Positions 863 through 63,833 of a stretch of DNA of 64,000 nucleotides are shown here, piece after piece. The stretch spans positions 235,718-299,717 of the forward strand of contig CP060237.1 in NCBI GenBank assembly GCA_023898745.1. Reading direction: 5' to 3'. This DNA is from Alphaproteobacteria bacterium. GTDB lineage: Bacteria > Pseudomonadota > Alphaproteobacteria > G02398745 > G023898745. Positions within the stretch are counted from its first letter, which is position 1; each line of letters opens with the position of its first letter. Below the pieces are notes generated by a model. It was not told the DNA's origin. It saw only the letters and a list, made by a program, of their open reading frames with translations, and did no database searches. A program made the position numbers and the translations under genes.

Positions 863-980
863 ATCACGCGCATCGTCACAGACCGTCGTCATGGCGAGCG
901 AAGCGTTGCCATCCATGGATCACCACGAAGCTCAGCTCCTCGTGAGGACGATATACTGTGCACTCCTCATGATGACGACC
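863..980. repeat. Modular GC-rich hairpin repeat cluster (GTCATGGCGAGCG / GGCCATCCAT / GGATCACCACG...CTCGTGA modules)
   Basis: cgtcatggcgagcgaagcgttgccatccatggatcaccacgaagctcagctcctcgtgaggacg; the same modules recur in more than 25 intergenic regions. Confidence 0.75.
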
Positions 981-1008
981 ACCTTCGATACGGAAAAGGG
1001 GACAGTCC

Positions 1009-2340
1009 ATGATTAAAATCGCACTCGTAGGACGTGCCAACGTCGGAAAGTCCACACTATTCAACTGCTTTTCTAAAGAGAAATCTGCCATTGTGTATGA
1101 CCAACCTGGTGTAACGCGCGATCCAAAAAAAGAATTGATTCAATGGGGTGACTATTCATTCTATTTGACAGACACGCCGGGCATAGATCTTTATGAAGAT
1201 GAACTCTTAAAGCGACAAGTTTTAAAACGCATTGAAGAAGAAGCTGAAGACGCAGATTATTTGTGGCTCATGGTTGATGGGACAGTCGGATTAACAAGCA
1301 TTGATCGTGATGTCGTAAAATTAATTCGCAAATTTGGCAAGCCTGTCATTGTATTGGTTAATAAGGTTGATCGCAAAGATTTTGATGAGCTAACATTTTA
1401 TGAGCTAGGGTTTGAGCATGTAGTTGCCGTTTCCGCAGAACATCAAATTGGATTGCACGATATTTTTGCCCCTATGGACGCGCAACGTTTGATGGAGGGC
1501 TCTATAGCTGAGCGACGCAGTCAGATTGCTGTGCTAGGTCGTCCAAATGCTGGAAAATCCACGTTTATTAATGCCATTTTAGGTGAAGATCGACAACTCA
1601 CAGGAGATATGCCTGGATTAACACGCGAGTCCGTGAAATATCCATTTGATTTTCATGGCGAAGCCTATGAATTGATTGATACGGCTGGTATCAAGAAAAA
1701 AGCTAAGACCAAAGAAGACTTAGAGAAATTAAGTCTACGCGCAAGCTTTGATACGCTTCAGTTTGCTGAGTGTATTATTTATATGATTGATGGCAAGCAA
1801 GTTTCACAATTTGGACTGGATCAGCAGGATTTAGCTATGATTTACAAAATCCTAGAAGAAGGGCGTTGCCTTGTTGTATGTATGAGCAAATGGGACGAAG
1901 TTAAAGATCCAAAGATGGTACTCGATACTGTGAAACATACGCTTATGATTAAAGGGTTTTCATATGTTCCTATTGTGCCAATTTCATCGTTTGAACGCTT
2001 TGGTGTGAGTAAAATTTTTGATGTTGTAAAAAGAATGCTGCAGTTTTGGAATAAACGCATCAGCACAGGTAAATTAAACTCCTGGTTAAAAGAGAGCGCT
2101 TTAGAAGTTGCCCCACCCTCTCATGGCGGCCGCGCTGTAAAATTGAAGTTTGCTACACAAGTCAAAACACGTCCACCGCGCATATGTGTGTTTGTGAACG
2201 TTGTTCACGATGGATTGAAAAAATATGAGCGCTATTTGATGAATCGCTTTCATAAAGAGTTTGGATATGAGGGTGTACCTGTAAGAGTGTTTTTTAGAGC
2301 AACGAAAAATCCATATGTTGCTGAGCAAACATCATCTTAA
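1009..2340 (+). CDS. der: Ribosome-biogenesis GTPase Der/EngA, with tandem GTP-binding domains
   Basis: Two P-loops (GRANVGKST and GRPNAGKST), DTPG/DTAG and NKVD/SKWD motifs; 443 aa, full length. Confidence 0.93.
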   Translation: MIKIALVGRANVGKSTLFNCFSKEKSAIVYDQPGVTRDPKKELIQWGDYSFYLTDTPGIDLYEDELLKRQVLKRIEEEAEDADYLWLMVDGTVGLTSIDRDVVKLIRKFGKPVIVLVNKVDRKDFDELTFYELGFEHVVAVSAEHQIGLHDIFAPMDAQRLMEGSIAERRSQIAVLGRPNAGKSTFINAILGEDRQLTGDMPGLTRESVKYPFDFHGEAYELIDTAGIKKKAKTKEDLEKLSLRASFDTLQFAECIIYMIDGKQVSQFGLDQQDLAMIYKILEEGRCLVVCMSKWDEVKDPKMVLDTVKHTLMIKGFSYVPIVPISSFERFGVSKIFDVVKRMLQFWNKRISTGKLNSWLKESALEVAPPSHGGRAVKLKFATQVKTRPPRICVFVNVVHDGLKKYERYLMNRFHKEFGYEGVPVRVFFRATKNPYVAEQTSS

Positions 2341-2355
2341 ACAGAGCAAATTTGA

Positions 2356-61111: not shown

Positions 61112-62521
61112 ATGTATCAAAAATTCCCTGACATAATGCCCGACTTAAAAGAAAATTACCCAAAAGAGTTGCTGTTAATCGTACAAACCACCGCACTTCT
61201 AGGGTTTGCTCTTTTTTCATTAATTTGGATATATCAAAAATTCTCTCTTAATAATGAAGACAAACAACGCTATATTGAAAGTCTATTCAATCAGGCACTT
61301 CATGAAAATCAAAAAAATTCAGTGGAATCTTTGAAAAAAGTTATAAGATTATCAGTAAAAAACAATACATTCAAAATGAGATCCTATGCAATTTTAATGG
61401 AAATTTTTTACAAGAACAGGGAATTTGAAGAATTTGAAAGGTATTTTGAATTATTCTTAAAAGGAGAGGATGGTTCAGAATCAAAATTTGTAGATGAACG
61501 CGCCGCTGTTTATTTTTATAAAGCTCAAGTTATGAAATTTTTTAGTAACGACAAAACATCAGAAGAGCGCATACGCGAAGCAATTACGTACTATGAAAAA
61601 GCCTTTGGACTCGCAATTGATCGAAATATCAAAATTGCAGCTGAAGCTGCGCTTGGAAACTGTTATATACACTTAGACAAGACCGATGAAGCAAAGCCAT
61701 ACTTAGAGCGAGCATCAGCAAGCGGTTCGTTTATGGCAAGTCAAAATTTAGGATACATCTACTTTGAAAAACAGCTTTTTGCAAAGGCTAAAAAATTTTT
61801 CATTAGAGCTTCCAATCAAACATCAGAAAAAAAACACCATTTGGAGCTGTTACAGCATAACATCTTTCTTTTGAACATGCTGATCTCAATAGAAAAAAAT
61901 AAAATACATGAAGCCGAAATAGACCAAACGAATAAAAAAACAATAGAACATCTTTTTTATGATGTCACGTATGAGGAAGAGCAAGATTTAAAAAAACCAA
62001 AGACAACCGTAGACGCTGATCAATCAGATAAAACACCCTCTCCCAAGTGGATCGCCCAAAAAAAAGGTATCCCGAGTTATCAAGAGCAGCTGAAGGCTTA
62101 TGCGGCAAGGAAAGACCAAAGGCAAAAATGCATAGAATGCATAGAGCGTCAAATACATCAAAACAAAAAAGCTTTGGAATTAACATTACCACCAAAAAAC
62201 GTTCCTGCGAACGATTATGAAACATTAAAAAAAATCTTCAAACAATCTCGTGAACCAAAAGGGTGGGTAGAATTCAAATCCTATCAGGATCTCTTACAAC
62301 ATCTTGGAGGAGATTTTGATTTTAAAACAGTGCCTCACAAAGCTACTTTACCTCAAAGAGAAAATCCAGATACAATCGTGACTAGATTTTTACATCCAAA
62401 ACATAGAAAAGAGGGTAATAATGATAGACTTCAAATGACAGGATATGAGCACTGGTTCATAAAGAGTCTTTTTGAAGAAGCTGGGTATTTTGACATCAGC
62501 AGTTTCAAGCGACATAAGTGA
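61112..62521 (+). CDS. Sel1/TPR-like repeat membrane protein
   Basis: N-terminal TM (LLLIVQTTALLGFALFSLIWIY), then Sel1-like repeats (AALGNCYIHLDKTDEA...ASQNLGYIYFEKQLFAKAKKFF). The first ~40 bp of the gene are duplicated about 118 bp upstream. Confidence 0.5.
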   Translation: MYQKFPDIMPDLKENYPKELLLIVQTTALLGFALFSLIWIYQKFSLNNEDKQRYIESLFNQALHENQKNSVESLKKVIRLSVKNNTFKMRSYAILMEIFYKNREFEEFERYFELFLKGEDGSESKFVDERAAVYFYKAQVMKFFSNDKTSEERIREAITYYEKAFGLAIDRNIKIAAEAALGNCYIHLDKTDEAKPYLERASASGSFMASQNLGYIYFEKQLFAKAKKFFIRASNQTSEKKHHLELLQHNIFLLNMLISIEKNKIHEAEIDQTNKKTIEHLFYDVTYEEEQDLKKPKTTVDADQSDKTPSPKWIAQKKGIPSYQEQLKAYAARKDQRQKCIECIERQIHQNKKALELTLPPKNVPANDYETLKKIFKQSREPKGWVEFKSYQDLLQHLGGDFDFKTVPHKATLPQRENPDTIVTRFLHPKHRKEGNNDRLQMTGYEHWFIKSLFEEAGYFDISSFKRHK

Positions 62522-62639
62522 CGAGGTTACGAAGTAGAGTAAACCACCATCAATGAACATTAAATGATCTCCTAAAGCATGCTCTGCCTGTTTTTACGAG
62601 ATTCCTTCGGCTACGCCTCAGGATGACGGTGCTGTTAAT

Positions 62640-63833
62640 TCAGGATGGCGAAACAATACGATAATGATGCTTCCTCCCAACCGTTAAAATCATATCTTTT
62701 TCCCACTTCACAGTTGCGGCAATATCTGTAATTTTCTCGTCATTGATTTTCACGGCACCACTGGAAATACCGTTTTTCGCTAAAGAGCGGCTTGCGTATA
62801 ATTCATTTTCAACGAGTGTATCAAGCAACTTTTCATGCAGTACTTTCAACACAGGTAATGAGTCCAAGTTGCCTGATTTGTTTTCAAACACTTGCTCTAC
62901 TGTCTTATGAATTCCTGGCAAAACGTCTGCACCATGCAATAAAGTTGTTACTTCATCTGCAAGTGTTTTCTTTGCTTCATTGATATTGCCTTTCATGATC
63001 ACAGCAATTTGATCCAACGGTAGTTCTGTAAAAATCTTCAAAAACTTTTCCACATCTTTATCATGTGCATTCCTAAAATATTGCCAAAAATCATATGGTG
63101 AGGTTTTGTCTGCATTGAGCCAAATGGCTTTACCTTCACCAGTTTTGCCCATCTTTGTACCAGAGGAGGTGGTGAGCAATGGAATGGTTAAACCATATGC
63201 ATCTTTGCCTGCAATTTTATGAATGAGTTCAACGCCATTGATGATATTACCCCACTGTTCAGATCCACCAATTTGCAATTTACAATTATGATTTTTAAAG
63301 AGGTGATAAAAGTCATATCCCTGTAAAATCATATAGTTAAACTCAAGGAAAGAAATGGGTTTATTGTTATCTAGACGATTCTTCACAAACTCAAATCCAA
63401 TCATTCTGTTGATCGAAAAATAGCGACCAATTTCTCTTAAGAAATCGATATAATTCAGGCTCTTAATCCAGTCTGCATTGTTCACAATGATCGGATTATC
63501 GAGATAAATTCTGTAGGTTTTTTCTAATGACTCTAGATTTTTTTGAATCGTATCTTTGTCTAATAATGGGCGCTCTTTTTCTTTATCTGATGGATCGCCA
63601 ATTAATGTTGTTGCACCACCTAACAATACAATTGGCTGATGCCCAGCTTTTTCTAATCTGCGCAACATCATAATGCCAATCAAATGCCCTACATGAAGGC
63701 TATCTCCTGTAGCGTCAAATCCTTGATATACGGTAACTTTCTCGTTTTCAAACATATGGTCGATGGTTGGCTCATCTGTGGTTTGGTAGACAAACCCACG
63801 GTCTTTGAGAGTGGAAAGAAGCTTTGTGTTCAT
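62640..63833 (-). CDS. tyrS: Tyrosine--tRNA ligase
   Basis: Class I HIGH motif (DSLHVGHL), KMSKS-like KMGKT, and a C-terminal S4-like domain. Confidence 0.93.
   Translation of the reverse strand: MNTKLLSTLKDRGFVYQTTDEPTIDHMFENEKVTVYQGFDATGDSLHVGHLIGIMMLRRLEKAGHQPIVLLGGATTLIGDPSDKEKERPLLDKDTIQKNLESLEKTYRIYLDNPIIVNNADWIKSLNYIDFLREIGRYFSINRMIGFEFVKNRLDNNKPISFLEFNYMILQGYDFYHLFKNHNCKLQIGGSEQWGNIINGVELIHKIAGKDAYGLTIPLLTTSSGTKMGKTGEGKAIWLNADKTSPYDFWQYFRNAHDKDVEKFLKIFTELPLDQIAVIMKGNINEAKKTLADEVTTLLHGADVLPGIHKTVEQVFENKSGNLDSLPVLKVLHEKLLDTLVENELYASRSLAKNGISSGAVKINDEKITDIAATVKWEKDMILTVGRKHHYRIVSPS

Follow-up and report, generated by a model that had tools for sequence, protein, structure and literature searches.

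The window analysed in this work is a 64,000-nt stretch of a contig of 953,497 bp that belongs to a metagenome-assembled genome (MAG; locus tags H6850_) of an organism labelled 'Alphaproteobacteria bacterium'. Besides ordinary housekeeping genes, the window has genes for three Ser/Thr kinases of eukaryote-like type, for a terminase large subunit that stands alone and for numerous orphan proteins. The subject of this work is a short hairpin repeat with a CGTC tag that lies mainly between those genes. The window exhibits about 70 copies of it, each of 29-49 bases, which corresponds to about one unit per kb with fairly regular spacing.

The motif GTCATNNYGAG, which contains the tag, was matched 80 times where 0.75 matches were expected, and none of 100 shuffled sequences reached that count. 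Matches to ATGGATCACCACG with at most two mismatches numbered 53 (0.58 expected), and the composite GATCACCACG-N7-25-CTCGTGATGAC was matched 19 times (0 expected). A covariance model that had been built from the unit identified 68 units at E<0.01, spanning 887 to 60020, and copies of an additional CCT type reach as far as 62628. The intergenic DNA makes up only 17% of the window yet holds 76 of the 80 tags. Tags are present in 32 of the 43 intergenic regions of at least 50 bp, and units are found in 9/10 convergent, 10/14 divergent and 13/19 tandem regions. Many copies sit directly downstream of stop codons. The repeated sequence amounts to 5-6% of the window and is arranged in 38 clusters. 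The sequence-only reading of this DNA had described a short palindromic family saturating the intergenic regions and resembling repetitive extragenic palindromes (REPs), bacterial interspersed mosaic elements (BIMEs) and Rickettsia palindromic elements (RPEs), and the census confirms both the saturation and the resemblance.

Anatomy of the repeat unit

The unit consists, in order, of CGTC, AT-NNC, GAG, a variable inner hairpin, CGTG, GN'N'-AT and CCA. The CGTC tag is unpaired and is followed by a 5-bp stem (A-T and T-A first, C-G last), a GAG/CGTG internal loop, the inner hairpin and the CCA tail. The pairing is local, between GTCAT-NNN and the N'N'N'-AT right before the tail. Among 213 distinct units, drawn from the window and from other genomes, 198 are fully complementary at the three variable stem positions, which the pattern used to collect the units left free of any complementarity requirement. 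It had been proposed that GTCAT-NN pairs with a distal CTC-NN-ATGAC, which is not what these counts show. The distal ATGAC is part of an inverted partner unit whose NNN nearly always differs, and the long palindrome as first described is formed by the CCT type only. The two separate units that had been proposed also collapse into one, as CGTCATCACGAG..CGTGGTGATCCAT becomes ATGGATCACCACG..CTCGTGATGACG when reverse-complemented and both denote the same unit on opposite strands.

Covariation was measured on 55 distinct 35-nt units that were chosen without regard to complementarity. The pattern that selected them fixed GTCAT at the 5' side and AT at the 3' side, so the invariance of A5, T6, A31 and T32 and the stem start of A-U in 55/55 and U-A in 55/55 units are built in. 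Pairing in the outer helix reaches 99.3%, two of its positions show 13 double changes each, and its pairs covary as CAC/GTG, GGC/GCC, TGC/GCA and AGC/GCT. In the inner helix, the two innermost pairs are hardly ever broken and account for 20 and 6 double changes. The covariation score of the whole structure is 0.406, compared to 0.140 for shuffles (0/500 as high), and 87% of cells are paired in the proposed structure compared to 19-65% when the partners are slid. Energy z-scores from minimum free energy folding were dropped for whole units and cores, which are too short for the energy model (50 of 195 cores stayed unfolded), and pair counts were used in their place. The compensatory covariation that had been claimed is thus real, with changes on both sides that keep the pairing. 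The claim of selection on structure stands in part: only hairpin-forming variants propagate or persist, but covariation among amplified copies does not prove a host function.

Outside the stem, none of the 55 units departs from G2, T3 or C4, and most of them have C or T at position 1. The tag is CGTC in 39 and TGTC in 2 of 41 strict window units, and the tail is CCA in 33 of the same 41. The tails of 202 units from other genomes include CCA (96), CTC (55) and CTG (15); a tRNA-like minihelix reading of the CCA tail was considered unlikely, given that CTC or CTG tails make up a third of those foreign copies. The stem types of the 68 model hits are CAC (32), GGC (16), TGC (6), GGT (3), AGC (2), TAC (1) and AAC (1), and 7 hits are too degenerate to assign. 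The additional CCT/AGG type has a CTT tail and forms homodimer palindromes of 79-83 nt at 30954, 48146 and 55026.

The cores, in contrast to this frame, are highly variable. Invariance is confined to the hairpin base and the unpaired positions, and the top is free to vary. The window contributes 34 distinct cores and other genomes 166, with 195 distinct cores among 243 units. They are 6-26 nt long with an inner hairpin of 2-6 bp, and their mean best stem is 3.5 bp compared to 2.2 bp in shuffles. About half of them are perfect hairpins of 4-6 bp, such as CCTTGC-GTA-GCAAGG, ATCTGC-GAA-GCAGAT and GGAC-GAA-GTCC. The commonest core, GAGCGNAGCGAC (30 of 55 units), is a mere GCGNAGC mini-hairpin of two Watson-Crick pairs flanked by G.A/A.G. 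Accordingly, of the five cores that had been quoted as perfect hairpins, four are perfect, whereas gtcgctgcgctcc, which is of the commonest type, has only two Watson-Crick pairs plus G.A/A.G.

The loops are strand-specific, with the favoured form on the tag strand. When 139 hairpins are read on that strand, G..A loops number 71 and T..C loops 2, the loop-closing pair is C-G in 114, and the caps are typically C(GNA)G or C(GNNA)G. DNA mini-hairpins with a C(GNA)G triloop, for example d(GCGAAGC), have exceptional stability.

Dimers, modules and clusters

The units pair tail to tail (ATCCAT/ATGGAT) with their tags facing outward. All 16 strict heterodimers of the window combine a CAC arm with a GGC, TGC or AGC arm, for which the probability by chance is about 1.5e-5 at roughly equal arm frequencies; the same scan also gave one CCT homodimer. 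The scan of other genomes, which was anchored on CAC units and is therefore biased, gave 46 CAC+TGC, 10 CAC+GGC and 0 CAC+CAC dimers. In each dimer both strands carry one tag-strand-type hairpin, and this two-fold symmetry fits a process at the DNA level. A hand tally over the listed window dimers shows a mixed orientation relative to transcription, with about half each way in tandem regions and 19 versus 13 on the two strands.

Single inverted dimers are found at 4038-4113 (CAC(+)4038-4072 / TGC(-)4076-4113), 5870-5954 (CAC(+)5870-5905 / GGC(-)5906-5954, with a 26-nt core), 12410-12476 (GGC(+)/CAC(-)), 20220-20293 (CAC(+)/AGC(-)), 24840-24905 (CAC-like(+)/GGT-GCC(-)), 32721-32787 (CAC(+)/GGC(-)), 47632-47704 (GGC(+)/CAC(-)) and 58095-58165 (CAC(+)/GGT-GCC(-)). 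The dimer at 887-977 consists of GGC(+)887-915, a degenerate CAC(-)916-950 and a half-unit at 951-977. Two dimers each are found at 8631-8784 (CAC(+)/TGC(-) and CAC(+)/GGC-like(-)) and 59860-60047 (TGC(+)/CAC(-) and GGC(+)/CAC(-), plus a half-unit). A dimer AGC(+)/CAC(-) at 41847-41919 is followed by a solitary AAC/GTG unit at 41991-42025 (cluster 41847-42025).

Degenerate or truncated arms are present at 32151-32213 (CAC(+)32151-32185 / truncated TGC(-)), 32958-33053 (a tag fragment, then GGC-like(+)32981-33015 / CAC(-)33019-33053), 38032-38160 (a degenerate unit, CAC(-)38064-38098, GGC(+)38108-38143 and a truncated partner), 40746-40850 (a degenerate CAC(-), truncated TGC(+)40791-40814 and TAC(-)40816-40850) and 58928-59006 (degenerate GGC(+) / CAC(-)58970-59006). 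The pair at 24163-24242, TGC(-)24163-24200 and a degenerate CAC(+)24208-24242, has the rare arrangement with tags inward, and a half-unit with TGC(+)27734-27771 lies at 27706-27771. The CCT type is found as a 79-nt near-perfect palindrome at 30954-31032 (CGTCATCCTGAG..CTCAGGATGACG; -24.6 kcal/mol, z -7.6), as a homodimer at 48146-48226 with half-like tags (cluster 48146-48266), as a homodimer at 55026-55108 followed by two GGC(+)/CAC(-) dimers, an RS130 fragment and a half-unit (cluster 55026-55354), and as a single unit, the last copy of the window, at 62598-62628 on the minus strand.

Two longer modules travel in the same clusters. RS110 (about 106 nt) sits between the tails in five dimers, and RS130 (about 115 nt) sits between tags. 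RS110 occurs in two versions, in which identical flanks enclose a first hairpin of wholly unlike sequence (AAATTTTGCC..GGCAAAATTT versus CGCCATCGCCC..GGGCTATGGCG); the copies at 27166-27279 and 46485-46595 stand against those at 5294-5400, 7022-7127, 21187-21293, 36276-36379 and 54014-54120. The copy at 27166-27279 (minus strand, adjoining tRNA-Leu) has the swapped first hairpin (CGCCGTCGCCC..GGGCTATGGCG), and the copy at 46485-46595 (plus strand, second hairpin type) has no flanking units. The hairpin swap is the same logic of a variable hairpin in a fixed frame as in the small units. The start of RS110, CCGTCTTCGC (5294-5303 and equivalents), has CCGTCT in common with the Neisseria DNA uptake sequence GCCGTCTGAA, which is probably a coincidence. 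Neither module was found in the 120 loci of other genomes described below, save one weak partial match in locus L061.

The modules and units build the mosaics that had been described from the sequence, and the concatenation of units, RS110, RS130 and half-units in clusters was recovered here. The mosaic at 5118-5505 consists of a truncated unit, RS130 5137-5253, GGC(+)5254-5293, RS110 5294-5400, CAC(-)5410-5444 and half-units at 5445-5505 (25-nt tandem). The one at 6993-7351 consists of GGC(+), RS110 7022-7127, CAC(-)7140-7174, TGC/GCC(+)7185-7224, CAC(-)7233-7271 and three 27-nt half-units at 7272-7351. A CCT fragment (21137-21150), GGC(+)21158-21186, RS110 21187-21293, CAC(-)21303-21341 and an RS130 fragment make up 21137-21374. 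The mosaic at 25408-25730 consists of CAC(+)25408-25446 / GGC(-)25455-25503 (26-nt core), RS130 25504-25612, CAC(+)25632-25666, the 3' part of RS110 and a TGC tag at 25729. At 43109-43480, a GGC(+)/CAC(-) dimer, a truncated dimer and an RS130 fragment are followed by CAC(+)43282-43320 / GGC(-)43329-43377 and RS130 43378-43480. Smaller mosaics are found at 34319-34497 (GGC(+)/CAC(-) dimer, half-units and an RS130 fragment), 36233-36418 (CAC(+)36233-36267, RS110(-)36276-36379, GGC(-)36380-36418), 46862-46940 (CAC(+)46862-46896 and the 3' part of RS110), 53590-53701 (truncated GGC, CAC(-)53610-53648 and two 27-nt half-units) and 53971-54149 (CAC(+), RS110(-)54014-54120, GGT/GCT(-)54121-54149).

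The half-units keep just the loop-to-tag half, GCRCTCCTCGTGATGACG, with a spacer of 9-12 nt. They form direct tandem arrays at 7260-7325 and 53637-53701 (27-nt period) and at 5470-5519 (25-nt period), and each array starts at the tag of a CAC unit and leads away from that unit. They could have arisen when hairpins broke at the apex or when copying stopped short.

Genomic setting, relatives and other genomes

A lineage-specific burst of this family is evident from comparison with relatives. In the relative whose Der is 81% identical (L122), bamB and der overlap and the gap between rpsT and trxB is 4 bp, whereas the window has dimers at both places, namely 887-977 between the bamB-like gene and der and 5870-5954 between rpsT and the trxB-like gene. 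The covariance model found one significant and two marginal units in 17.6 kb of this relative, compared to 68 in the 64-kb window, and therefore the family has expanded in the lineage of the window. The same model found no unit in 20 kb of a 51% relative. The exact insertion boundaries are not recoverable from the 81% relative, as its intergenic DNA is too diverged. One insertion lies within a gene. The conserved hypothetical protein H6850_01420 (orf195, 40141-40728) has a lone GGC unit in frame at 40304-40332 on the minus strand, which encodes PMDGHAPLAMT in a variable loop, and the segment is missing in four homologues at 45-52% identity.

The repeats also generate false open reading frames (ORFs) and false N-terminal extensions, as had been noted from their PRDD and HHEE peptides. 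Such frames were identified at 20257-20319 (prs, from the dimer at 20220-20293), 32698-32799 (ruvC, from that at 32721-32787), 33005-33079 (a CorC-like gene, from the cluster at 32958-33053), 25508-25879 and 21302-21736. Annotators should mask the repeats, and the annotation of the H6850_ genome probably needs such masking.

With regard to the other genes, the eukaryote-type Ser/Thr protein kinase domains lie in three adjacent genes (14827-16080, 16578-18260 and 18401-20104) whose N-terminal regions are unrelated. These kinases and the many orphan proteins suggest a host-associated lifestyle. The terminase large-subunit gene (Terminase_6N/6C; 7356-8540, minus strand) has repeat clusters on both sides and no other phage genes nearby, and may be a remnant of a gene-transfer agent or a prophage.

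The 21 flank bases of the CAC unit were used to scan 185,579 species genomes, and at least 120 stretches were matched, which form a non-random sample whose taxonomic names are the labels of the depositors. Among the matches listed, the flanks are exact in genomes labelled with more than 15 phyla. About 5 chance matches are expected by arithmetic in a collection of this size, and three (L012, L028 and L040) look by eye like chance matches in coding sequence. In the remaining listed matches the core is a hairpin, and a TGC or GGC arm usually lies at a distance of 6-55 nt from the tail. The labels among the matches listed include Rickettsiales, Holosporales, Odyssella, Azospirillum, Coxiellaceae, Chromatiales, Burkholderiaceae, 'Deltaproteobacteria'/Syntrophales, Babeliaceae, Chloroflexia, Dehalococcoidia, Acidobacteriota/Aminicenantes, Bacteroidota, Ignavibacteria, Fibrobacter, Opitutus, Clostridia, Patescibacteria, Melainabacteria, Spirochaetota and Elusimicrobiota. 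The GC content of the matched loci ranges from 26% to 72%, which indicates that many different genomes are involved.

Several of the loci exhibit features of their own. The units in a Methanoregula bin (L073, a 1.9-kb contig) and an Actinomycetota bin (L104), an archaeal and an actinobacterial MAG, look genuine, and for contigs this short mis-binning is as likely as true presence. An Aminicenantes chromosome (L084, OY970122.1, 2.408-2.416 Mb) has direct tandem CAC pairs with differing cores, each preceded by a conserved GGTGCGGTGA, an arrangement that is absent from the window. The CAC unit was found in only 2 of 2.9 million viral contigs. These two near-identical IMG/VR contigs (L125 and L126, 62% GC) have TGC+CAC dimers with 40-50-nt spacers in many intergenic gaps and resemble ordinary dimer-filled DNA; one of them has the same 38 bases at both ends, inverted. 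No plasmid matched one CAC+GGC dimer of the window (81 nt) in a blastn search with the 'distant' setting.

A copying enzyme was sought in several ways. Pfam scans of 40 window ORFs gave no transposase, recombinase or nuclease candidate, and no RAYT (REP-associated tyrosine transposase) or other Y1 transposase is present within the 64-kb window. The 177 ORFs within 200 bp of tags in the 120 loci form no cluster larger than two, and hence no neighbour family is enriched. A search of the same loci for an ORF-carrying element (an XGC arm, 0.25-3.5 kb and a CAC arm) gave only housekeeping genes between the arms. Small GIY-YIG nucleases were dropped as partners after a motif regular expression, which is a weak test, gave none in the window or in 125 loci. 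A miniature inverted-repeat transposable element was also considered, as the tags-outward dimer has ends like terminal inverted repeats, but the flanks show no duplication by eye and no ORF-carrying version was found. The intrinsic terminator reading was rejected for lack of T tails and for a single trivial overlap among 26 terminator-like sites in 1-20000. The Rfam search of the window gave only three tRNAs at gathering score and nothing at E<=1 over 3900-8900, where about 20 units lie. Literature searches by repeat sequence or encoded peptide gave nothing relevant.

Propagation of the repeats and comparison with known systems

It has been reported that CGTC-tagged REPs form a superfamily with four families, CGTC-1 to CGTC-4 (Di Nocera, De Gregorio & Rocco, 2013; PMC3733652). 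The hallmarks given there are an unpaired CGTC tag (at times TGTC or CCTC), a stem that starts with A-T and T-A, a tail near CCA, inverted dimers that are often heterodimers, rare direct dimers, a chiefly intergenic location with some in-frame copies inside genes and no associated transposase. The tag, the AT stem start, the CCA-type tail, the inverted (hetero)dimers, the in-frame copy and the lack of a transposase are all present here, and the repeats very probably belong with this kind.

We consider the repeats of the window to be best explained as short, non-coding, non-autonomous CGTC-tagged REPs that act at the DNA level, with a probability of roughly 60%. How they would move is a more tentative matter, and recognition of a single-stranded DNA hairpin with mobilisation in trans is put forward, by analogy, at somewhat below even odds. 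The tag strand would extrude as a single-stranded DNA hairpin, and a trans-acting enzyme encoded elsewhere would read the tag, the AT-NNC stem, the GAG/CGTG loop and the tail while needing only a stable hairpin above them. RAYT/TnpA enzymes recognise GTAG plus a hairpin. If the enzyme reads only the base of the hairpin, the cores can vary freely provided they fold. The heterodimer would be the replicating unit, akin to the REPIN doublets of GTAG-type REPs, and cargo modules could travel with the pair (RS110 between tails, RS130 between tags) and give mosaics like the Neisseria intergenic mosaic elements (NIMEs). The two arms differ by two transitions (TGC versus CAC), by which each arm could fold alone and an unstable long perfect palindrome would be avoided; the same point has been raised for heterodimers (PMC3733652).

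Several points weigh against this explanation. The census covers the 64-kb window, and the contig measures at least 953 kb. The copies of an amplified element are not independent, so the covariation counts exaggerate the number of events. The mismatches in the outer stem show no strand asymmetry (6 G.T versus 4 A.C) and are silent on which strand folds. No target-site duplication or close pair of empty and filled sites was obtained, and mobility is thus deduced from copy number and lineage-specific presence only. No mobilising enzyme was found in the window, the matched loci or the literature. The described CGTC-REP families have stems of 8-9 bp without interruption and loops of 4-5 nt (PMC3733652), and the unit here has a 5-bp stem, the GAG/CGTG loop and a second hairpin instead.

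A bolder proposal is that the CAC/XGC heterodimer might be a single pan-bacterial mobile element, copied by an unrecognised conserved single-copy enzyme or by a universal host process that acts on C(GNA)G-capped hairpins. We regard it as rather doubtful. It builds on the identity of the 21 flank bases across genomes labelled as Alpha-, Gamma- and 'Delta'-proteobacteria, Dependentiae, Chloroflexota, Acidobacteriota, Bacteroidota, Fibrobacterota, Verrucomicrobiota, Firmicutes, Patescibacteria, Melainabacteria, Spirochaetota and Elusimicrobiota. As the flanks are exact, the copying enzyme could be found by phylogenetic profiling or co-occurrence.

The units could instead be recombination or integration sites of a site-specific recombinase, as proposed for the dRS3 repeat of Neisseria, with mosaics that grew by recombination and not by transposition. 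The NIME-like architecture of modules of about 110 and 130 nt flanked by units, the varying composition of the arrays and the tandem 25-27-nt half-unit arrays that break at the hairpin loop are consistent with this. Filamentous phages integrate at dRS3 via a phage transposase/recombinase, a route that has been proposed for NIMEs (PMC1797815), and dRS3 itself is a CGTC-1 REP (PMC3733652). However, no recombinase, integrase or prophage junction adjoins the window units and none is enriched in the 120 loci, the CAC unit is nearly absent from the viral contigs and one 81-nt window dimer matched no plasmid. Recombination alone also fails to account for isolated dimers that are new between genes which formerly overlapped or lay 4 bp apart, and we consider this explanation unlikely.

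It is quite unlikely that the repeats act at the RNA level, where transcribed hairpins would protect the mRNA upstream, cause attenuation or termination of transcription, or be sites for RNases or RNA-binding proteins, as shown for a number of E. coli REPs. In favour of this are the stability of the hairpins, their GNRA-like or GNA loops, the many copies that follow stop codons directly and the statement that many REPs are plausibly transcribed (PMC3733652). Nevertheless, units occupy 10 of 14 divergent, promoter-side regions, the hand-tallied orientation of heterodimers is mixed, the stems have no T-run and no Rfam match even at E<=1, and the favoured loop lies on opposite strands in the two arms of a dimer.

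If the units were binding sites for a host protein that structures the chromosome (like enterobacterial BIMEs, with gyrase, IHF or another nucleoid protein as candidates) and were kept for genome architecture, this would agree with the dense and fairly regular spacing, the strong conservation of unpaired positions and the tandem half-units with a conserved 18-mer at a 27-nt period. This explanation is improbable. The 81% Der relative manages with almost none and so its chromosome functions without needing them, the recurrence of the flanks in genomes that range from 26% to 72% GC and are labelled as many phyla would demand one conserved host protein everywhere, and the insertions in frame and at gene ends appear parasitic. 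Chance, low complexity or an assembly artefact, to which the MAG source lends the only support, has a negligible probability given the 80 and 53 matches against 0.75 and 0.58 expected, the unique flanks in which the units are embedded and an independent Logan assembly of SRR12358676 that is 100% identical across 4066 bp with two repeat clusters included, so the repeats are no assembly artefact.

The statement that the family may not have been described is not supported at the level of the kind, which has been known since 2013 (PMC3733652); the window has a structurally distinct variant of it. The two-tier interrupted stem, the heterodimer rule and the exact flanks across genomes labelled as many phyla appear to be new, being absent from PMC3733652 as described in the portions used here, with the family consensus sequences outside the comparison. 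The direct 25-27-nt half-unit arrays are an exception to the reported dimer pattern, and the published peptides (VIPAKAGI, VIPWLDHGI and VIPGLDPGIH) differ from those of the window. The same paper reports that CGTC-REPs are predominant in alphaproteobacteria, including intracellular ones, and are known from 5 phyla, whereas the window variant is found in genomes labelled with more than 15 phyla among the matches listed. It also places RPE-6 in CGTC-1, together with dRS3, and RPE-4 in CGTC-4.

The repeats share with RPEs an AT-rich, intracellular-type alphaproteobacterial setting, GC-rich palindromes and one in-frame copy in a protein. Unlike classic RPEs, which are 100-150 bp long and often intragenic, the unit is about 35 nt with an apparently different sequence and 76 of 80 tags are intergenic. 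The RPE-4 and RPE-6 peptides (WIPWSNHGMT and SFLRKQES..DSRFRGND) also differ from those of the window, a comparison made on peptides only. With GTAG-type REPs, BIMEs and REPINs the repeats have in common an unpaired tag of 4 nt on the 5' side of a hairpin, intergenic saturation and inverted doublets that are probably what replicates. The tag is CGTC and not GTAG, and no RAYT or Y1 transposase is linked to the repeats in the window or the literature.

NIMEs were described as dRS3 repeats flanking RS elements of 50-150 bp that were unseen outside Neisseria (Bentley et al., 2007; PMC1797815). The clusters of the window are similar in their inverted-repeat units of 20-40 bp around modules of 50-150 bp, in their intergenic mosaics that appear as GC peaks and in the CGTC-1 assignment of dRS3. 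They differ in that the dRS3 sequence ATTCCC-N8-GGGAAT is absent, that there are two module families compared to more than 100 RS families, and that there is no DNA uptake sequence context and no filamentous prophage.

CGTC-tagged REPs are common and disrupt gene ends and annotation, and their copying agent has been a question since 2013. The window adds a dense example beside a near-empty relative, a conserved asymmetric pairing rule and an anatomy in which the parts that have to be read (tag, AT-NNC stem, GAG/CGTG loop and tail) are set apart from the core, which must merely fold. Together, the NIME-like mosaics outside Neisseria, the heterodimer rule and the exact flanks in genomes labelled as many phyla sharpen the question of what propagates these elements.

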